Of a DNA stretch of 64,000 bases, positions 9,037-19,693 are shown one piece after another. This DNA comes from Peptococcia bacterium. Its GTDB lineage: Bacteria > Bacillota > Peptococcia > DRI-13 > DTU073. Each line of letters begins with the position of its first letter. Within the stretch, counting starts at the first letter, position 1. The translations under genes were made by a program, and so were the position numbers. The notes beneath the pieces are model-generated. The model was not told the DNA's origin and did not search any database. It saw nothing but the letters and a program-made list of their open reading frames with translations. The stretch covers positions 494,661-558,660 of the forward strand of contig JBMNJJ010000002.1 in NCBI GenBank assembly GCA_050951605.1, in the 5' to 3' direction.

Positions 9037-10509
9037 GTGGAAAATATTTTTCGAGATATTGCCGAAAGGACGGGAGGTGATGTCTATTTAGGTGTTGTGG
9101 GACCTGTTCGTGTAGGAAAATCAACTTTTATTAAAAGGTTTATGGATCTATTAGTTATTCCTAATATTACTAATGACTATGATCGAGAAAGAACTATTGA
9201 TGAATTACCTCAAAGTGGTGCCGGAAGAACAATTATGACGACTGAACCTAAATTTATACCAAATGAGGCGGTGGAAATTCAAGTTAAAGAAGGACTTTCT
9301 GTAGCGGTAAGATTAGTGGACTGTGTAGGTTATACCATTCCCGGAGCTAGAGGTTATGAAGATGAAAATGGTCCACGTATGGTTAATACACCTTGGTCAG
9401 AAGAACCGATGCCTTTTCAAGAGGCAGCAGAAATAGGTACACGTAAAGTTATTACTGATCATTCAACTATTGGGGTAGTCGTGACTACAGATGGTAGTAT
9501 TACAGACCTTCCTCGAGAAAATTATCAGGAAGCCGAAGCGAGAATTGTAGAAGAGCTTAAGGCATTGAATAAGCCTTTTGTGGTGATTCTTAATTCGCTG
9601 AATCCTTATGACGTTTCTACAGTTGAGTTAGCTCAGGAATTAGAAAATCTTTATGAGGTTCCTGTTATTCCGCTTGATATTGTCCAATTGTCACAAGGTA
9701 CGATTATGCAAGTATTAGAGGAAGCACTTTTTGAGTTTCCGGTTACGGAAGTAAATGTTAGTTTACCTAAATGGATTGAGGAACTTAAATCTGAACATTG
9801 GTTGAGGAAAAAGTTTGAGAGTTCAGTTTATGAGATTATTAGTAAGGTTCGGCGCTTGAGAGATATTGACCAAGCAATGGAAACACTTTCTAAGCTTGAT
9901 TTTATAGGTGAAGTTGTTTTAGAGAGTATGGAGATGGGAACGGGAGTGGCTGCTTTAGAAATGACGGCTAAAGAAGGTCTTTTTTATGAAGCCATTAATG
10001 AAGCGACCGGTCTAGAGGTTACAGGGGAACATGATATTTTTCGTTTATTAAAAGAATTAAGTGCGGTAAAGATCGAATATGATAAAGTGGGCGAAGCTTT
10101 AGAAAAAGTTCGAGAAACCGGTTATGGTGTTGTTAATCCACTTGTTTCAGAGATGAATTTGGAAGAACCGGAATTGATAAAACAAGGTGGTCTTTTTGGT
10201 GTCAGATTAAAAGCAAGTGCTCCTTCATTGCATATTATTCGGGCAGATATTGCTGCCGAAATAACACCTTTGATGGGGACAGAGAGACAGTGTGCTGATT
10301 TAGCACGTTATATCACAGATAAATTTCAAGAAAATCCTTCACAAATTTGGAATTACGATATTTTTGGTAAATCTCTGCATGACTTAGTTAGGGAAAGTAT
10401 CCAGGGTAAATTACAAGCAGTACCGGAAAATGTGCAGGAAAAATTACAGGAAACTTTAAGGCGGATTGTGAATGACGGTAGTGGTGGGATTATTTGCATA
10501 ATCATTTAA
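9037..10509 (+). CDS. spoIVA: stage IV sporulation protein A (spore-coat basement-layer ATPase)
   Basis: IFRDIAERTGGDVYLGVVGPVRVGKSTFIKRFM Walker A N-terminus. About 490 aa, colinear with SpoIVA. GTG start after AAGGAGGGG. Confidence 0.95.
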   Translation: MENIFRDIAERTGGDVYLGVVGPVRVGKSTFIKRFMDLLVIPNITNDYDRERTIDELPQSGAGRTIMTTEPKFIPNEAVEIQVKEGLSVAVRLVDCVGYTIPGARGYEDENGPRMVNTPWSEEPMPFQEAAEIGTRKVITDHSTIGVVVTTDGSITDLPRENYQEAEARIVEELKALNKPFVVILNSLNPYDVSTVELAQELENLYEVPVIPLDIVQLSQGTIMQVLEEALFEFPVTEVNVSLPKWIEELKSEHWLRKKFESSVYEIISKVRRLRDIDQAMETLSKLDFIGEVVLESMEMGTGVAALEMTAKEGLFYEAINEATGLEVTGEHDIFRLLKELSAVKIEYDKVGEALEKVRETGYGVVNPLVSEMNLEEPELIKQGGLFGVRLKASAPSLHIIRADIAAEITPLMGTERQCADLARYITDKFQENPSQIWNYDIFGKSLHDLVRESIQGKLQAVPENVQEKLQETLRRIVNDGSGGIICIII

Positions 10510-13456: not shown

Positions 13457-13534
13457 CGGGGCGTAGCTCAGTTTGGCTAGAGCGCCATCTTGGGGTGGTG
13501 GAGGCCGCTGGTTCAAGTCCAGTCGCTCCGACCA
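13457..13534 (+). tRNA. tRNA-Pro (anticodon GGG)
   Basis: Hand-folded cloverleaf. Acceptor cggggcg/cgctccg, anticodon arm ccatc-ttGGGgt-ggtgg, T-loop ttcaagt, encoded CCA. Confidence 0.9.
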
Positions 13535-14152: not shown

Positions 14153-14218
14153 GTTATTTATATTTAGTTTTTCTAGAAAAAAGGTTATAATGGCAATAGG
14201 CGAAGGGAGGTGTACCGG

Positions 14219-14431
14219 ATGTTTTCCATAGGTGCTACAGAATTAATATTAATATTAGTATTAGTTTTAATACTTTTTGGACCTGGTAAACTTCCTGAAG
14301 TTGGTAGGTCATTGGGGAAAGCTTGGTCGGAATTTAAAAAAGCAAAAGAAGATTTTGAGAACGAGTTTAAAGATGATGAGCTTAAAAAATATGACTTTGA
14401 GGGAAAAGAGTCTGATGATGATTTGTCTTAA
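14219..14431 (+). CDS. tatA: twin-arginine translocase subunit TatA/E
   Basis: [35 protein letters not shown] (TM plus FGPxKLP hinge). ATG follows a GGGAGG RBS. Confidence 0.85.
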
Positions 14432-14454
14432 GTTTAAAAAATTAGGTGAATAGA

Positions 14455-15166
14455 ATGGATGAAAAAAAGTTAACATTAATGGAACATTTAGAAGAGCTGC
14501 GGAGAAGGCTGATTATATCTTTGGTAGCTCTTTTTTTAGGTATGGTTTTTTCTTTTGTATTTTGGCAAGAGACAATTTTTTATTTATTGAAAGCACCTTT
14601 GCAGCAATTAGGACAGGAACTTGTGCTTCTTTCTGTTACGGAAGGGTTTATGTTGCAAATTAAGACAGCTTTTATCGGAGGTTTAGTTATAGCTTCGCCG
14701 GTTATTTTGTGGCAGTTAATTGCTTTTGTTTTGCCTGCTTTGTATAAAAAAGAAAGAAAGGTTTTCTGGTCTATTTTTCTTTCTAGTTTGCTTTTGTTTG
14801 TTTTGGGGATAGTTTTTGCTTATAAAGTTGTTCTTGTTTTAGGGCTTAAATTTCTTTTGGTTAATTTTAGTGGAGGCTTAACTCCCATGATTTCCGCGTC
14901 TAGATATTTAACTTTTATGCTTACGTTTTTATTTCCTTTTGGGATTGCCTTTGAGATACCAGTTGCTACTTATATCTTAACTAAAGTAGGAGTTTTAACA
15001 TCGAAAAAACTTCGGAAAGAAAAGACGTTATGTTATTTTGATTATTTTTATTATTGCTGCCTTTTTAACTCCTCCCGATGTAATTTCTCAGATTTTGTTA
15101 GCCTTGCCCATGTTATTATTATATGAAATAAGTATTTTCATCTCATTTTTTGTCGCTAAACGGTAA
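14455..15166 (+). pseudogene. tatC: twin-arginine translocase subunit TatC, interrupted by a +1 frameshift near 15016-15025
   Basis: The track ORF ends in nonsense (..KEKTLCYFDYFYYCC..). The +1 frame of the same bases reads RRYVILIIFIIAAFLTPPDVISQILLALPMLLLYEISIFISFFVAKR*, the canonical TatC C-terminus. Confidence 0.8.
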
Positions 15167-15258
15167 GTTTATCATGTTTTTGCAGGAGTTTTGCTTAGTA
15201 TAAAAGAATTAATAATATGTAAAATATGTTGAAAAAATAAAAAAGACAGAATGGTGCG

Positions 15259-16052
15259 ATGAATATGGATGCTTATGAACGATTTCTTTTAACCTTGATA
15301 CAAAAGTTGGACCTTGATTTATCAGGGTATAAAAGAAAGCAAATGGAAAGAAGAATTAATTCTCTTATGGGTATTTTAGGTTTTAATAATGATTATGATA
15401 AGTTTGTACAGGCAATGTTGAAAGATAAGCGAATTTATCATCGTTTTCTTGAGCATATCACGATTAATGTTTCGGAATTTTTTCGTAATCCTTCTCAATG
15501 GGAAATTTTAAGGGAAAAAATATTTCCTAAGTTGTTATCTGAGGAGAAGAGATTATATATATGGAGTGTAGGTTGTTCAACTGGGGAAGAAGTATATAGT
15601 TTAGCTATGACTTTGACTGAATTTTTTCCTATGCAGAGATATTCTATTTGGGCAACTGATTGTGATGATACTGTTTTACGAAAAGCAAAGGAAGGAGTTT
15701 ATTCCTCCAAAAGTATAAAAACTGTTCCTGATAAATATCTAAATAAATATTTTATTGTTGAAAATAAAACATATCATATAAAAGATGAATTAAAAAAGAA
15801 TATTACTTTTGGAAACCATGATATATTAAAAGATAAATTTCCTAAACAGATGGATTTTATTGTTTGCAGAAATGTAGTTATTTATTTTAAAGAAGAAATT
15901 AAAGATCAACTTTATTTTAAATTTTATGACTGCGTTACGACCTGGAGGTATTTTGTTTACGAGGTAGTACAGAACAAATTATTCAGGCTAAAGAGATGGG
16001 GTTTGAAACAGTTGCAGCATTTTTTTATAGGCGACCTCATAGAATTAAGTGA
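15259..16052 (+). pseudogene. cheR: chemotaxis protein methyltransferase CheR, with two +1 frameshifts near 15931 and 15962
   Basis: NVSEFFRNP and WSVGCSTGEEVYSLAM are in frame 1. The conserved ALRPGGILFT is in frame +1, and GSTEQIIQAKEMGFETVAAFFYRRPHRIK* is in frame +2. Confidence 0.8.
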
Positions 16053-16085
16053 GTTGTATAGATGAAGTAGGAGGATTGATGTCTT

Positions 16086-18207
16086 TTGCAAGATACCGTA
16101 TTTGTGTTAGATATTGGAACAAGGTCAGTGATTAGCACTTTTAGCTTCTCTACAAGAGGAAGAATTAGTTGTAGAGCATCTTATTTCCAGAGAACATCAG
16201 ACTAGAGCTATGCTTGATGGGCAAATTCATCATGTAGAGGAAGTAGTTCGAATAGTTGAGGAACTAGTGCAGGAAATGCAGCAAGTTACGGGGCGGGAAT
16301 TAAAAAAAGTAGCAGTCGCTGCAGCAGGAAGAACTTTAGAAACGGTTAAAGGTTCAGCTAAAATAGTTCATCCAGTCAGTACTGTTTTTACAAAAGAAGA
16401 AGTTCTCTCTTTAGAATTACAGGCTGTACAGGAAGCACAATTAGCTTTACCAAAAAATCAGGAAAATGTTCCTTTATCTTTGCAGTATTATTGTGTTGGT
16501 TACAGTATTGCGGAGGAACGTCTTGATAATGTTAAAATAGGTTCGTTAGTAGGACAAAGGGGTGAGGAAGCTCAGATTGAAATCATTGCTACTTTTTTGC
16601 CACGGATGGTTGTTGATTCTTTACAAATTGTGGTAGAGAGTGTGGGTTTAGAAATAGCTTCAATTACTTTAGAACCTATTGCCGTGGCTAATTTAGTTCT
16701 TAATCCGGCGATGCGCCGTCTGAATCTTGTTTTGGTTGATATAGGGGCAGGGACTTCTGATATTGCAGTTTGTGGAGGTAATTTTATTTCAGCCTTTGGG
16801 ATGGTACCGATGGCGGGTGATGAAATTACCGAGGCTATTTCGGAACAATATTTATTAGATTTTAATAGGGCCGAGGAGGTTAAACGGCAGCTGAACAGTA
16901 AACAGGAAATAAGTGCTGTTAGTATTTTGGGTAAAGAAGAGGTATATATGGCTGAAGAAATAAGACAAAACCTTCAACCTGGTATTGTAACACTGGCTTC
17001 AGCTATTGCGGAAACTATATTAGAGCTTAATAACAAACCTCCCCAAGCTTTACTTTTAGTGGGAGGAGGCAGTTTGACTTCAGGTTTAGACAAAAAACTG
17101 GCCGAGGCACTTAATTTGTCCGAAGATAGGGTCGCAGTACAACAGGCGAATAAAATTCAACGAGTTCATAATTTACCGGAAGAGTTTAGTGGTCCTAATT
17201 TTATTACTGTTTTAGCAATTGCTTATACGGCTTTGACTAATTCGACAATGAGTTTTATTACGGTATATATTAACGACCAACCTGTACGGATGTTGAATTT
17301 GGCCCAAAATAATGTGGCAGGGGCTCTTTTGGCCGGAGGATATAACTTAAAAGATGTATATGCTCGACCGGGAATGGCCCTTACTTGTGAAATTAATGGA
17401 AAAATATATTCTATACCTGGAGAAGAAGGAAAACCAGGAAAAATTTTGCTTAATGAACGGTTGGTAGAATTTAGTGAAGAAATAAAACATGAAGATAATA
17501 TTCGTTTTATTCCTGGTCAAAAAGGTCAGGATGCTGTGATTACTTTTGGTGAATTGTTAAAAGATCAGATAGGAATTTGTTATGTTAATGGTCAAGAAGT
17601 AGAACTTTTACCGGTAATTAAAGTTGAGGATAAAATAATGTCTACACAGGACTTTGTGGTAGATGGTTGTAAAGCCGAAATTGAAAGTAGTTATACTATT
17701 GAGGAAGTATTACAAAAAGCTGATCTCATTACCGGTGAAAATATGATTATAATAAATGGTAGAAAAGTAAATCTTTTAGAAATAGCAGAAATTACAAAAA
17801 ATGGTGAAAAGGCATCTTATAAAGAGCGGGTATTTCCCGGAGATGACCTTACTTATGCGGAATTATCAGAGCTATACATTAAGGATATTATAGTTGATGA
17901 ACCATTAATACATATTGAAGTGATGGTCAATGATTGCCCTGTAAAACTTGATTCTCTGCGGGTATGGTTAAATAAAACAAAAATAAATCCTCGTGAAGCC
18001 ATTTCTCTTCAAGACGGGGATGTTCTAGAATATCAAACTGAAGGATCGCTATATAAGCCGATTTTAGTAGATATTTTTAATGAAATAGATTTTTCGACAG
18101 AACCGCCACCAGGGAAGTCGAAACTTGTAATTTTACTTAATGGTGTAGAGAGAGAGTATACTTACCCTTTACAGCAAGGGGATAGAATCCAAATTCGTTG
18201 GGAATAA
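16086..18207 (+). pseudogene. FtsA/PilM-like actin-fold (ASKHA) ATPase with long repeat-containing C-terminal half; N-terminal frameshift near 16131-16135
   Basis: The phosphate-1 motif VFVLDIGTRSVI (from TTG 16086) is one frame away from the main ORF (LALLASLQEEELVVEH.. then track ORF 16210). The main ORF carries LVLVDIGAGTSDIAV and LLLVGGGS motifs. Confidence 0.7.
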
Positions 18208-18218
18208 TGAATTATGTA

Positions 18219-18884
18219 TTAAAAAGAAGAAGGGAGTCGAGGGAATTTTTGGTAAAGCAACTGCGGACTGCTGAGGTCTTGTGGTGATATTTCTATGAGC
18301 TGTATTCCTTCATGATGAGTTAGTAAGTTTAAACTAAATGAACGTCGATAATAAAGAGGTGTTAGGAGTATAGCAAGTTTTCTCTTTGGTAAAAAGTAAT
18401 CGAGCTTGATACTGCGAAAGGAGTAGTTTTTAATTATTTTTTCTTGCGGATAAAGAGCTGTAATAAATTTATCTAAGTTGATTTTAACTTCCGATTTTTT
18501 AGAGGAAGTATTTATTTTGGTGAGGGGATGAATAGTTGATACTTCACTAATGTTAGTTTGAGGTTGTTTTTTAGGTTGATTATGAAAAATAGGCAAGGCA
18601 AAGATTGCTTCTAATGTTGGTTCAAGATTACCAAAACATTTTTGTAATTTAGGAGGGGGCAATTTTTGGGCAATTAACTGTCTATAGATTTGTTCGAGGG
18701 GTAATTCATTTCTTTGCAGTAGTTGCTTGAGGAGAAGGTTTGTTTTGTTTATGAGGGTTTCTGCTTGGGGGAGATGTTTATTAAAATCTTCTTTTTCTAA
18801 TTGGCTCATTTGGATAATGATTTGAATAAGGTTATCTATATTGCCAAGAATGTTTTTTTCAATTTCCGTGGTGTTTATTGACAT
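18219..18884 (-). CDS. hypothetical protein (221 aa)
   Basis: Long ORF with no overlap and its own upstream AT-rich region. I recognise no family. Confidence 0.45.
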   Translation of the reverse strand: MSINTTEIEKNILGNIDNLIQIIIQMSQLEKEDFNKHLPQAETLINKTNLLLKQLLQRNELPLEQIYRQLIAQKLPPPKLQKCFGNLEPTLEAIFALPIFHNQPKKQPQTNISEVSTIHPLTKINTSSKKSEVKINLDKFITALYPQEKIIKNYSFRSIKLDYFLPKRKLAILLTPLYYRRSFSLNLLTHHEGIQLIEISPQDLSSPQLLYQKFPRLPSSF

Positions 18885-19028: not shown

Positions 19029-19105
19029 CGGGGTATAGCGCAGTTTGGTAGCGCACCTGGTTTGGGACCAGGGTGTCGGGGGTTCAAATCCCTCTACCCC
19101 GACCA
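19029..19105 (+). tRNA. tRNA-Pro (anticodon TGG)
   Basis: Cloverleaf with anticodon arm cctgg-ttTGGga-ccagg, T-loop ttcaaat, encoded CCA. Confidence 0.9.
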
Positions 19106-19124
19106 AAAATAGATTGCTGAATCT

Positions 19125-19199
19125 GGCCCGGTGGTCAAGTGGTTAAGACACGGCCCTTTCAAGGCTGCGACACGGGTTCAACTCCCGTCCGGGTCACCA
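19125..19199 (+). tRNA. tRNA-Glu (anticodon TTC)
   Basis: ggcccgg acceptor, anticodon arm cggcc-ctTTCaa-ggctg, encoded CCA. Confidence 0.9.
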
Positions 19200-19219
19200 G
19201 TTTTTATTAGTATTGTTGT

Positions 19220-19295
19220 GGAGCTGTGGTGTAGTGGTTAACATGCCTGCCTGTCACGCAGGAGATCGCGAGTTCGACTCTCGTCAGCTCCGCCA
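19220..19295 (+). tRNA. tRNA-Asp (anticodon GTC)
   Basis: ggagctg acceptor, anticodon loop ctGTCac, T-loop ttcgact, encoded CCA. Confidence 0.9.
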
Positions 19296-19302
19296 TATAT
19301 AT

Positions 19303-19378
19303 GCCGACGTAGCTCAATTGGCAGAGCAGCTGACTTGTAATCAGCAGGTTGCGGGTTCGAGTCCCATCGTCGGCTCCA
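19303..19378 (+). tRNA. tRNA-Thr (anticodon TGT)
   Basis: gccgacg acceptor, anticodon arm gctga-ctTGTaa-tcagc. One C:A mismatch in the T stem. Confidence 0.85.
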
Positions 19379-19386
19379 AAAATTCT

Positions 19387-19472
<86 letters not shown>

Positions 19473-19489
19473 TTTGTATTTATTGATGT

Positions 19490-19565
19490 TGGGGCGTAGC
19501 CAAGTTGGTAAGGCAACGGACTTTGACTCCGTGATTCGTAGGTTCGAGTCCTGCCGCCCCAGCCA
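19490..19565 (+). tRNA. tRNA-Gln (anticodon TTG)
   Basis: tggggcg acceptor, anticodon arm acgga-ctTTGac-tccgt, encoded CCA. Confidence 0.9.
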
Positions 19566-19606
19566 TTTTAATTTAATAAAGAAGAGGAAGATATATGTTC
19601 ATACAA

Positions 19607-19693
19607 GCGGCTGTGGCGGAATTGGCAGACGCGCTAGATTCAGGTTCTAGTGCCCAGAAGGGCATGGAGGTTCAAGTCCTCTCAGCCGCACCA
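19607..19693 (+). tRNA. tRNA-Leu (anticodon CAG), long variable arm
   Basis: gcggctg acceptor, anticodon arm ctaga-ttCAGgt-tctag, class II variable arm, encoded CCA. Confidence 0.9.

Follow-up and report, generated by a model that had tools for sequence, protein, structure and literature searches.

Actin homologues of the FtsA, PilM and MreB type organize cell division, pili and cell shape. At its C-terminus, FtsA has a flexible linker and then an amphipathic helix that targets the membrane, and PilM, a scaffold in the cytoplasm, clamps the N-terminal peptide of its partner. Tandem β-grasp domains in a single bacterial polypeptide are found in the Ubl3 proteins (PDB 9CD2 and 9D5A). The domains of a Ubl3 protein number between one and three, and its gene accompanies those for E1, E2 and a deubiquitinase; Ubl3 proteins serve as conjugation substrates and also assemble with themselves, forming dimers and filaments that depend on Ca2+ (Gong et al. 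2024, PMC11601603). Here we describe a gene whose product appears to join the two, with an FtsA-class ATPase followed by an array of β-grasp-like repeats. In the literature searched, we found no characterized precedent for an actin-like ATPase carrying a non-conjugatable polyubiquitin-like rod, and no paper on this family, on an FtsA paralogue of this kind or on such a β-grasp fusion; the Aravind-group surveys of the β-grasp fold do not mention fusions to FtsA, MreB or HSP70. A first-pass annotation, made from the sequence alone, had likewise named no characterized function. The fusion would extend the known non-covalent, structural roles of the β-grasp fold in bacteria.

The gene lies in a 64,000-nt stretch of a Peptococcia bacterium genome (contig JBMNJJ010000002.1), hereafter the window, and a search of the window found no paralogue. 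It starts at a TTG codon at 16086, with GGAGG at 16070–16074, 11 nt upstream, and stops at 18205–18207. The first-pass annotation had placed both ends correctly and treated the 2122 nt as a single gene; in the window, however, they are split into two ORFs, 16086–16205 (39 aa) and 16210–18207 (665 aa), and the frameshift had been read across without remark. We compared the window base by base with a JGI metagenome contig (L001) that is 99.7% identical to it. Besides the extra G that splits the gene (Table 1), the window has six further single G/C insertions at 15930–16053, corrupting cheR at its 3′ end. Indels relative to L001 are also present in tatC, which is frameshifted in both the window and L001 and intact, with 236 aa, in a second contig (L002).

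Taken at face value, the extra G leads to a premature stop after 39 codons, as expected if the gene in the window were a genuine pseudogene inactivated by the frameshift. We consider this quite improbable. All seven single G/C insertions fall inside a 200-bp interval (15930–16130) of a sequence that is otherwise 99.7% identical, and such clustering is the typical pattern of a local assembly or consensus error. Past the shift, the 690 codons agree fully with the intact protein (100% identity) and show no other lesion. Since three independent metagenome contigs from three samples (L001–L003) carry the uninterrupted 706-aa gene, the frameshift at 16130 most likely reflects an error in sequencing or assembly.

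Table 1. Coordinates of the gene, its predicted domains and repeats, and its neighbours in the window
Feature	Position	Strand	Basis or remark
tatA (14210–14431) and tatC (from 14446)	14210–15126	+	Upstream of cheR
cheR (CheR_N and CheR methyltransferase)	15259–16065	+	Directly upstream of the gene; 3′ end from ~15930 corrupted by six insertions
Whole gene	16086–18207	+	706 codons and stop after removing extra base 16130; corrected translation P0001
Extra G relative to L001	16130	+	+1 frameshift, splits the gene; base-by-base comparison
Predicted FtsA/PilM-class actin-fold ATPase domain, residues 1–384; subdomains 1A, 1C (SHS2-like), 2A, 2B	16086–17238	+	Pfam, TIGR01174, Foldseek
Phosphate-1 motif DIGT, residues 9–12	16110–16121	+	D9, G11, T12 invariant in 67 homologues
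Phosphate-2 motif VDIGAGTSDIAV, residues 217–228	16735–16770	+	D218, G220, G222, T223, D225 invariant
Adenosine-binding motif LLLVGGGS, residues 322–329	17050–17073	+	G326–G328 invariant
Predicted repeat D1, residues 387–446: hairpin ITVYINDQPVRML, helix, hairpin LTCEINGKIYSI	17245–17424	+	DSSP, Foldseek, profile comparison
Predicted repeat D2, residues 449–508: KILLNERLV...EDNIRFI, helix FGELLKD, hairpin ICYVNGQEVEL	17431–17610	+	Repeat HMM 449–507, 3e-13
Predicted repeat D3, residues 509–564: VIKVEDKIM...DGCKAEIE, helix IEEVLQK, hairpin MIIINGRKVN	17611–17778	+	Repeat HMM 509–563, 5e-14
Predicted repeat D4, residues 565–623: EITKNGEKA...GDDLTYA, short low-confidence helix, hairpin IEVMVNDCPVKL	17779–17955	+	Repeat HMM 567–622, 1e-12
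Predicted repeat D5, residues 624–706: LRVWLNKTKI...GDVLEYQ, helix PILVDIFNEI, PPPGK loop, LVILLNGVE...GDRIQIRWE	17956–18204	+	Model, profile comparison
Convergent 221-aa ORF	18219–18884	−	Without Pfam, NCBIfam or PADLOC match

In profile searches, residues 1–384 match Pfam FtsA (1.6e-12), PilM_2 and MreB_Mbl, as well as the NCBIfam models ftsA (TIGR01174, E 1.6e-25), EutJ and pilM. The AlphaFold model (pLDDT 87) retrieved FtsA, PilM, EutJ and MreB structures with Foldseek, in that order, with FtsA 7q6f at E 1.1e-27 and TMt 0.77 over 404 columns. These results bear out the FtsA/PilM/EutJ-like N-terminal region proposed earlier, and the three ATPase motifs quoted for it are all present (Table 1). 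The conservation of the motifs was assessed on an alignment of 67 homologues sharing 37–79% identity, in which E196-P197 is likewise invariant; homologue P0092 also gave a weak match to SHS2_FTSA. In the model, residues 1–384 form the full FtsA/PilM-class actin fold; the ATP-binding motifs in it are invariant.

One reading of this half is that the gene encodes the organism's cell-division FtsA, which would tether FtsZ to the membrane, as its source annotation at JGI/NCBI ("cell division protein FtsA") implies. FtsA proteins provide the top sequence and structure matches of residues 1–384, and those of Thermotoga maritima (1E4G/4A2A), E. coli (7Q6D) and Vibrio maritimus (7Q6F) have the same actin/ASKHA fold with a 1C (SHS2) subdomain and the same phosphate-1, phosphate-2 and adenosine motifs. 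One relative of the gene is situated between minE and rodA. However, identity to FtsA is only 13–20%, and the protein reaches half of the score demanded by the curated equivalog cut-off (90.0 bits against 175.85 for TIGR01174; 45.3 against 409 for PRK09472); with TIGR01174, homologue P0069 gave 79 bits and P0079 gave 107. In place of the C-terminal amphipathic membrane helix, the protein has 320 aa of β-grasp repeats whose last element is the strand RIQIRW, and no transmembrane segment is predicted in the 706 aa. There are no ftsZ or dcw genes within ±8 kb of the gene, and the slot occupied in Bacillaceae is that of aroA/ytxJ, not the ftsA-ftsZ operon. An FtsA orthologue is thus very unlikely, and the protein is not the essential divisome FtsA.

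A second reading is that the protein is PilM, the cytoplasmic actin-like platform of a type IV pilus or competence machine. Pfam PilM_2 matches all 67 homologues, and the PilM structures from Thermus (2YCH) and Pseudomonas (5EOU) have the same FtsA-like four-subdomain actin fold, with TMt up to 0.80 (2ych). The gene is annotated "pilM" in NZ_CP015439, and PGAP gives this name in Anoxybacillus and some MAGs. On the other hand, TIGR01175 gives 50.9 bits where its cut-off is 133, and PilM proteins end after the actin fold, without a C-terminal repeat array. No pilN/O/P/Q, pilB/C/T or pilin genes stand beside the 39 non-Bacilli loci or the Bacilli loci. It is highly improbable that the product is PilM itself.

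For the C-terminal part, structure prediction and Foldseek were needed because sequence search alone could not settle the fold. PF02597 (ThiS) did not match P0001 at E≤1, and the array stayed below the cut-offs of Ub-Mut7C (13.7 bits against 23; faint, residues 681–704) and moaD_arch (22.7 against 49.5). A C-terminal profile searched against PDB sequences gave marginal matches, with the S4 protein YabO/RqcP at E 0.015 and MoaD at 0.036. Residues 380–706 were modelled separately with a pLDDT of 89. The best PDB matches of this model were the multi-ubiquitin proteins 9cd2/9d5a (E 7e-6 to 3e-4; 9cd2_A, E 6.8e-6; 9cd2_B, probability 1.00; 9d5a, E 2.8e-4) and ISG15. ThiS 3cwi matched with probability 0.99, TMt 0.64 and rmsd 2.7 Å, TGS 2kmm with TMt 0.61, and SAMP1 with probability 0.96; the TGS structures 2KMM and 7QPR align to the array at rmsd 3.0–3.4 Å. 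Among the 67 homologues, Pfam matches were found to Ub-Mut7C (44), ThiS (41; best 2.7e-16), TGS (24) and S4 (9), those to TGS and S4 covering only the common NG...GD strand pair. The ThiS-like β-grasp repeats suggested by the first-pass annotation are therefore supported by the predicted structure, and no dedicated characterized family covers the modules.

"About six" modules had been counted. The repetition is real and far beyond chance: profile-profile comparison gave E values of 2e-15 to 2e-20 among D2, D3 and D4 (1.7e-20 for D2 against D4), and hhalign probabilities were 98.5–99.3% among D2–D4, 97–98% to D5 and 87–92% to D1. The number of units is five, as the models contain five helices, with two β-pairs per unit, each having its own N-G/D turn. 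The six quoted "opener" motifs (starting at residues 391, 433, 497, 553, 610 and 681) and four "closers" (469, 584, 643 and 697) were all located, but instead of marking unit boundaries they belong to the two halves that make up a unit. In the models, the array is five tandem homologous repeats of ~57–83 aa, each built as β-pair, helix and β-pair, which is the minimal β-grasp arrangement as in ThiS, MoaD, TGS and ubiquitin. Relatives of ~650 aa have four repeats and lack about one repeat's elements, drawn from D3, D4 and D5. A register with the helix first was considered and rejected; it leaves an extra hairpin on unit one and only two strands on the last unit. We prefer the register β-pair, helix, β-pair because it leaves no element unused, whether in relatives with five units or in those with four, an argument from predicted secondary structure and indel patterns.

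The resemblance to ThiS and ubiquitin raises the question of whether the modules carry sulfur in the manner of ThiS/MoaD, or form a poly-ubiquitin-like precursor destined for cleavage and conjugation, with the ATPase as an unconventional activating enzyme. The array has in common with ThiS/MoaD/SAMP and Ub-Mut7C the β-grasp fold and the strand signature "hhhhNG...(loop)...GDxhxh" (the ThiS/MoaD-like "NG...GDxIEI"), and D5 is the most ThiS-like unit. Among multi-domain structures, the nearest are those of Ubl3 proteins from bacterial ubiquitination operons (PMC11601603), which also hold tandem β-grasp domains in one polypeptide. In contrast to these systems, the array modules are internal, and Gly-Gly occurs neither after any module nor at the C-terminus; the protein ends W-E (...GDRIQIRWE), with W705 nearly invariant (at least 90% conserved in homologues). 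In three of the five units the last element is a tight hairpin instead of the ThiS-like β3–β5 element, and compared with Ubl3 the array has five smaller, degenerate units behind an ATPase. The inter-module linkers are short (2–8 residues) and modelled at pLDDT >90, which suggests a compact rod and not cleavable beads. Across the 67 homologues, the conserved array residues are only the turn-forming N, G, D and P. No E1, E2, JAB or ThiF/MoeB genes were found within ±8 kb of the gene, no E1, E2, JAB, ThiF/MoeB, ThiG or MoaE genes were found among the neighbours examined at family loci, and PADLOC gave no match to Bil/Bub-type systems. A carrier or modifier role is extremely unlikely. Because the modules are acidic, have no C-terminal Gly-Gly and have no E1/E2/JAB gene nearby, we conclude that they neither carry sulfur nor serve as conjugatable ubiquitin-like modifiers. 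A structural role for β-grasp arrays nevertheless has a precedent, since Ubl3 proteins self-assemble.

Another possibility is an RNA-binding or chaperone-type machine, in which TGS/S4-like modules, powered by an ATPase of the Hsp70/EutJ kind, would grip RNA or an unfolded client. The TGS and S4 matches in homologues and the weak match of the array profile to YabO/RqcP fit this idea. The TGS/S4 proteins (SpoT/RelA and ThrRS; YabO/RqcP and Hsp15) have the αL / NG...GD strand-pair motif in common with the array. EutJ and DDR (reactivase) models match the ATPase core, and the layout, by analogy only, is that of Hsp70/DnaK, with an actin-fold NBD of ~380 aa and then a β-rich region of ~300 aa. However, the S4/TGS matches are restricted to that strand pair, and S4/TGS proteins are basic, single RNA-binding modules, whereas the array consists of five units on an actin-like ATPase and is acidic (residues 385–706, pI 4.62, net charge −20; family median pI 5.2). 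The ATPase carries the FtsA/PilM 1C subdomain, which is absent from Hsp70 and EutJ, in place of 1B, and the protein has neither an SBD β-sandwich nor a lid; no Hsp70 HMM match rose above noise. No eut/pdu or ribosome-rescue genes are linked among the neighbours of the 39 non-Bacilli loci. RNA binding by the array is possible on sequence grounds, but a machine of this kind is distinctly improbable.

The genes around the locus are those named by the first-pass annotation: tatA, tatC, cheR and a hypothetical gene on the opposite strand (Table 1). In the intact contig, the gap between cheR and the gene is 35 nt, and no promoter or terminator was found between them. The position of the convergent 221-aa ORF beside the gene is kept in three same-species contigs. 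The cheR neighbour, although present here, is not a family trait, being directly upstream in only 6 of ~80 genomes. To look for partners, we clustered 1158 neighbouring ORFs from 85 loci and ran Pfam on 144 immediate neighbours. This comparison of orthologous neighbourhoods, which the first-pass annotation had suggested, yielded no universal operon partner: no Pfam family occurs more than 7 times among the 144 immediate neighbours (39 non-Bacilli loci). The frequent Bacilli neighbours aroA, ccpA and ytxJ/H/G were discarded as partners, as they reflect plain synteny; in Bacillaceae the family gene has a constant position between ccpA-aroA and ytxJ-ytxH, at a distance from the dcw cluster. A conserved upstream block in Bacillaceae proved to consist of the divergent aroA promoter and a palindrome. 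Motifs of alternative sigma factors (sigD, H, E, F/G, K, B and W) upstream of 85 members showed no enrichment over shuffles.

Some individual loci are more suggestive. One (L025) has the arrangement mreBCD-pbp2-minCDE-[gene]-rodA, in Syntrophomonadaceae an MreB homologue and then flagellar-rod genes lie just upstream of the family gene, and in three loci (L030, L074 and L041) GGDEF/HD-GYP genes follow directly downstream on the same strand. The cellular process served by the protein is probably morphogenesis, motility or signalling, and the protein is not sporulation-specific; only a minor part of the genomes supports the link to these processes, which may reflect synteny by chance.

We then propose a model for the gene product, which we consider somewhat better than an even bet: a soluble cytoplasmic FtsA-class ATPase that acts as an ATP-dependent scaffold, with a β-grasp rod that binds proteins, and with the frameshift in the window as an error. 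The actin-like domain probably binds ATP and would use it for self-association and/or for clamping a short peptide of a partner. The clamp is drawn by analogy with FtsA and its partners FtsZ/FtsN and with PilM and PilN, and a PilM-type peptide clamp is a plausible working model. The rigid acidic β-grasp rod would take the place of FtsA's C-terminal membrane-targeting helix and would most plausibly bind proteins non-covalently, as an adaptor or spacer, or provide a surface for self-assembly. D1 and D5, the modules with the highest conservation, would hold a partner or pack on the ATPase. ATP hydrolysis, polymerization and partner binding would be expected of the family from its homology.

It is tempting to go further and regard the family as actin-like bacterial proteins of a new class, cytoskeletal or scaffolding, in which ATP-dependent, FtsA-type self-assembly displays a polyubiquitin-like rod of four or five modules that recruits MreB/Min/RodA, CheR and GGDEF/HD-GYP proteins. 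This bolder version is unlikely as a whole. If true, the family would be a Firmicutes-wide organizer, missed because Bacillus subtilis 168 appears to lack the gene.

To analyze the distribution of the family, we collected homologues at E≤1e-30, which form at least 441 clusters at 50% identity. Nearly all are 700–735 aa long, with the array running from about residue 380 to the end, and across these clusters the repeat array was found only behind an FtsA/PilM-type ATPase. The family is present in at least 544 species genomes of Bacilli, Clostridia, Negativicutes, heliobacteria and Halanaerobiales, with carriers that include Brevibacillus, Lysinibacillus, Oceanobacillus, heliobacteria, Desulfosporosinus, the Moorella group, Selenomonas and Pectinatus; as far as seen, it appears confined to Bacillota. 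The Bacillaceae genera with the family gene presumably also carry a canonical ftsA. An FtsA-class paralogue kept in hundreds of Bacillota species would be an overlooked component of Gram-positive cell organization. No association with mobile elements was found in phage and plasmid collections, whose only matches are unannotated virome contigs (full-length matches at 21–25% identity) and two chromosomal-type replicons. Neither the PADLOC defence models nor NCBIfam contains a family-specific model, and source annotations call the members "FtsA", "PilM" or "rod shape-determining protein". Judged by their sequences, the names FtsA and PilM are mislabels for this family, which represents a paralogue and not an orthologue, and FtsA, PilM and MreB labels assigned by genome pipelines can distort inventories of divisome and pilus genes.

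The interval 16086-18207 (+) comprises 2122 nt, no multiple of three, and the ORF listing of the window divides it into 16086..16205 (39 aa, MQDTVFVLDIGTRSVIS...) and 16210..18207 (665 aa), so the single ORF of the first-pass annotation is not found there. Three-frame reading places a +1 shift directly after ...DIGTRSV. The frame-corrected 706-aa translation is ~100% identical over its full length to the JGI protein P0001 (706 aa), whose gene is uninterrupted on three same-species metagenome contigs, each from a different sample. Compared base by base with the longest of these, L001 (271 kb; 99.7% identical to the window over 18 kb), the window has an extra G at 16130 and six more single G/C insertions at 15930-16053, which garble the last ~45 codons of cheR. 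The tatC gene of the window also carries indels; it is split in L001 too, but intact in a second contig, L002 (236 aa). The cluster of single-base indels at 14900-16130 looks like a local consensus error, not biology. Given the intact P0001 on three contigs, the clustered insertions and the flawless frame 3' of 16130, the frameshift in the target gene is very probably a sequence or assembly error, and P0001 was used as the gene product throughout. The gene starts with TTG, preceded 11 nt upstream by GGAGG, which makes a reasonable start site. The window also differs from L001 at 13999 and 18246-18341.

Sequence and predicted structure identify the N-terminal half as an FtsA/PilM-class actin-fold protein that binds ATP. 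The FtsA/PilM/EutJ likeness had been proposed from motifs, all of which lie where the first-pass annotation placed them, and Pfam, NCBIfam and model-based PDB matches agree on it. Pfam matches are FtsA (PF14450, 1.6e-12), PilM_2 (2e-10) and MreB_Mbl (8.5e-7), and NCBIfam matches are ftsA TIGR01174 (E 1.6e-25, 90 bits; cut-off 175.85), pilM (50.9 bits; cut-off 133) and EutJ. In a full-length AlphaFold2 model based on an alignment of 67 homologues (mean pLDDT 87.1), the nearest PDB structures are FtsA of Vibrio, E. coli, Xenorhabdus, Staphylococcus and Thermotoga (E 1e-27 to 1e-21; TM on the target 0.71-0.79 over ~400 columns), followed by PilM (E 3e-20 to 1e-17, TM up to 0.80), EutJ and then MreB. 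Since FtsA and PilM are covered over their full length, the 1C/SHS2 subdomain is present. Invariant across the 67 sequences, which share 37-79% identity with the query, are the nucleotide-binding signatures D9-G11-T12, D218-G220-A221-G222-T223-D225, E196-P197 and G326-G328, together with family-specific positions including E36-H37, R40, M42, G45-Q46-I47 and A78-A79-A80-G81-R82.

The C-terminal modules had been likened to ThiS/MoaD-type beta-grasp domains, and two independent lines support this reading: HMM matches across the family and Foldseek searches of the model. The signals of the target protein itself are faint (Ub-Mut7C 0.061, archaeal MoaD 1e-4; both under cut-off), while its homologues match Ub-Mut7C (44/67), ThiS (41/67, best 2.7e-16), TGS (24/67), S4 (9/67) and ThiS-like (6/67) models. 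Most single matches are limited to the C-terminal 'NG...GDxIEI' strand pair of Ub-Mut7C/ThiS/TGS/S4-type models; a few take in the whole ThiS profile, as in the homologue P0109, where residues 517-601 align with positions 2-69. Because a profile search against PDB sequences was ambiguous between the S4 protein YabO and MoaD, residues 380-706 were modelled separately (29 sequences; pLDDT 89.2). In Foldseek, E<=1e-3 was reached solely by the bacterial multi-ubiquitin proteins 9cd2 and 9d5a, with the tandem Ubl ISG15 next; after it came the TGS domains 2kmm (TM 0.61, rmsd 3.4) and SpoT 7qpr (rmsd 3.0, prob 0.99-1.00), ThiS 3cwi (prob 0.99, TM 0.64, rmsd 2.7) and SAMP1.

The modules are indeed tandem and homologous, but they number five rather than the approximately six first counted. 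DSSP assigns five helices to the array in both models. Two types of strand element lie between them, a tight hairpin 'h.h.hN(G/D)..h.h' and a three-strand 'hhhhN(G/E/K)..h-loop-(G/E)D.h.h', in the order h1 a1 h2 / T1 a2 h3 / T2 a3 h4 / T3 a4 h5 / T4 a5 T5. Profile-profile comparisons among D2, D3 and D4 (prob 98.5-99.3%, E 2e-15 to 2e-20), of D5 with D3/D4 (97.8-98.3%) and of D1 with D2/D4 (87-92%) show homology of the predicted units along their entire length. A repeat HMM finds three complete copies in the target protein plus half-copies in D1 and D5, and gives 4-5 significant matches in 65/67 homologues. In relatives of ~650 aa (Thermanaeromonas, Moorellaceae, Calderihabitans), h4, a4 and T4 are missing, and T2-a3-T3 and h5-a5-T5 remain as two clean ThiS-like units; these proteins thus have four units. 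Only the beta-pair/helix/beta-pair register would assign every element to a unit, in the long proteins as well as in the short ones. The count of six is explained by what its motifs mark: the 'openers' are the initial hairpin of D1 together with the second beta-pairs of all five units, and the 'closers' sit in the first beta-pairs of D2, D4 and D5 and in the second one of D5. Conservation is highest in D1 and D5, and D3/D4 are dispensable, given that four-unit relatives exist.

The repeats share the fold of ThiS, MoaD, TGS and ubiquitin but do not have the functional hallmarks of carriers and modifiers: the protein ends in ...GDRIQIRWE (W705 >=90% conserved), no unit of the array is followed by Gly-Gly, and no E1/E2/JAB or ThiF/MoeB genes were found within +/-8 kb in the window species or among the neighbours at relatives' loci. 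The conserved array residues are all turn formers (N396, G418, G429, N437-G438, G445, G448, N456, D470, G480, N572, D586, N615, N685, D699), and the alignment shows no Cys, His or Ser among them that might serve in chemistry; PADLOC models gave no match beyond a trivial ATPase-motif hit. RNA binding of the S4/TGS type is disfavoured by the acidity of the array (pI 4.62, net charge -20; family median pI 5.2). The linkers between units are short (2-8 residues) and modelled at pLDDT >90, suggesting a compact rod, with an estimated length of about 12-15 nm.

FtsA and PilM are nucleotide-bound cytoplasmic platforms that oligomerise and clamp short partner peptides: FtsA clamps the FtsZ C-terminus on 2B and FtsN on 1C, and PilM clamps the PilN N-terminus between 1A and 1C. 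This behaviour is established in both families (structures 4A2A, 7Q6I and 2YCH/5EOU, all among the PDB matches of the target). With its conserved ATP site and 1C subdomain, the target protein may well act in a similar way. FtsA ends in a membrane anchor, whereas five acidic beta-grasp modules form a rod at the end of the target protein, and beta-grasp domains without a reactive C-terminus are generally non-covalent adaptors. In tandem Ubl3 proteins, the arrays themselves drive dimer and filament assembly (PMC11601603). We therefore favour, as a tentative hypothesis that could well be wrong, an ATP-regulated scaffold whose rod would recruit or space partner proteins or mediate self-assembly.

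Together, the structural identity of the protein is assigned with high confidence, and the initial picture of an actin-fold ATPase with a beta-grasp series is upheld after correction of the repeat count, the frameshift and the cheR link. In its mode of action the protein most resembles FtsA or PilM, but it belongs to neither family. Both curated cut-offs are failed, which makes it a distinct paralogue; it has neither a transmembrane segment nor an amphipathic tail, lies in neither an ftsZ nor a pilN-Q context, and carries domains that FtsA and PilM do not have.

To place the family, the array profile was compared with 1.84 billion cluster representatives, giving 441 matches at E<=1e-30 and 847 at E<=1e-10. 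Among the 150 matches listed, nearly all full-length ones have 700-735 aa, with the array running from ~residue 380 to the C-terminus, and the shorter ones resemble fragments from contig ends; the array is thus found, as far as seen, solely behind this ATPase. Scanning GTDB with one genome for each species confirmed at least 544 relatives, the best 80 of which include Brevibacillus, Lysinibacillus, Oceanobacillus, Peribacillus, Metabacillus, Kurthia, Amphibacillus, Heliobacterium, Desulfosporosinus, Syntrophomonas, Neomoorella, Pelosinus, Selenomonas, Pectinatus, Mitsuokella and Halanaerobiales. These 80 cover motile and non-motile genera and both spore-formers and non-spore-formers, so the gene is not sporulation-specific. 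Source names are all generic ('cell division FtsA domain-containing protein', 'cell division protein FtsA', 'pilus assembly protein PilM', 'rod shape-determining protein', 'SHS2 domain-containing protein'). NCBIfam holds no model specific to the family, a literature search returned nothing on it, and two large beta-grasp surveys (PMC1779556, PMC1949818) mention no FtsA, MreB or HSP70 fusions. The family is thus numerous, phylogenetically broad, uncharacterised and regularly mis-annotated; its novelty lies in the architecture, an FtsA/PilM-class ATPase with a beta-grasp array, which defines a testable orphan family and no new principle. Three unannotated 'Bacteriophage sp.' contigs from human faecal viromes (MT838720, MT838807, MT835753) in a phage collection match the array over its full length at 21-24% identity; they are probably bacterial DNA in virome data.

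In the window species, the gene order is speH-like, tatA, tatC, cheR, target gene, a convergent 221-aa orphan ORF and a tRNA cluster. cheR and the target gene are likely co-transcribed, as the intact contig has only 35 nt between them and nothing in this gap resembles a promoter or terminator; no further chemotaxis genes lie within +/-8 kb. The orphan ORF stays beside the target gene in 3/3 same-species contigs, and the 55%-identical relative L006 has no ORF of similar size at its position, judged by size alone. The presence of spoIVA marks the source organism as a spore-former of the Clostridia/Peptococcaceae type. The 75-92-aa 'ORFs' listed at tRNA sites are translated tRNA DNA.

Coordinates of the features (window positions; residues of the protein for D1-D5; L rows under the locus named)
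Feature	Position	Strand	Remarks
D1	residues 387-446		beta-pair, helix, beta-pair
D2	residues 449-508		beta-pair, helix, beta-pair
D3	residues 509-564		beta-pair, helix, beta-pair
D4	residues 565-623		beta-pair, helix, beta-pair
D5	residues 624-706		beta-pair, helix, beta-pair
spoIVA (SpoIVA ATPase)	9037-10509		~5.6 kb upstream; middle and C domains in corresponding L001 gene
tRNA-Pro(GGG)	13457-13534		between thrB and AdoMet-decarboxylase gene
Deletion vs L001	14911		same cluster (14900-16130)
Single-base G/C insertions vs L001	15014, 15930, 15961, 16038, 16042, 16049, 16053, 16130		frameshift tatC, cheR 3' end, target gene
Convergent 221-aa ORF	18219-18884	-	Q/L/P-rich; no Pfam, NCBIfam or PADLOC match
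Seven-tRNA cluster (Pro, Glu, Asp, Thr, Tyr, Gln, Leu)	19029-19693		downstream of convergent orphan ORF
L030	10426-13023		Cache-GAF-GGDEF-HD-GYP gene directly downstream of family member, same strand
L074	10119-11816		GAF-GGDEF gene directly downstream of family member, same strand
L041	8048-9812		Spo0E-like gene, then HD-GYP gene, directly downstream of family member, same strand

To compare neighbourhoods, 1158 adjoining ORFs from 85 loci were clustered. The cheR adjacency noted initially is true in the window species but confined to few lineages: six genomes, those of the window species, L006, L008, L041 and two heliobacteria, have cheR upstream in the same orientation. In about half of the loci, all from Bacilli, the gene occupies one fixed slot, acuABC-ccpA-aroA (divergent) / gene / ytxJ-ytxH-DUF948-murC, as the annotated Anoxybacillus amylolyticus record confirms; this is synteny, not an operon. 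In the 39 remaining loci, no neighbour family occurs more than 7 times. In three unrelated genomes (L030, L074 and L041), the family member is followed directly, on the same strand, by c-di-GMP signalling genes of the GGDEF and/or HD-GYP type. In L025 (1602-12995, Firmicutes bacterium UBA3567), the order on a single strand is mreB-mreC-mreD-pbp2-minC-minD-minE-[gene]-rodA-M23 peptidase-M50 peptidase, with a ~50-nt gap on each side of the family member (597 aa as called from the contig); this locus is the strongest single context hint of a morphogenetic role. Three Syntrophomonadaceae loci have an MreB homologue and two ~250-280-aa genes with flagellar-rod Pfam matches just upstream, and ctsR and McsB- and ClpC-like genes downstream. 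Most Negativicutes loci carry a divergent Dak2/FakA-family gene and a ~280-aa gene (DegV by Pfam) upstream. As judged from gene order, the contexts lean towards morphogenesis, motility and signalling, each pattern occurring in a minority of loci. Alternative-sigma promoters are not enriched upstream of family members. Many Bacillaceae aroA / gene intergenic regions (e.g. L023, L027, L029, L034, L045, L060, L073, L077-L080) share a conserved ~80-nt block that contains a near-consensus sigma-A promoter of the divergent aroA (GTGACA-17 nt-TATAAT, minus strand) and, beside it, a perfect palindrome, AACGCTT-TT-AAGCGTT, with CTTTA/TAAAG flanks, which could be an operator for a regulator of aroA and/or the FtsA-like gene.
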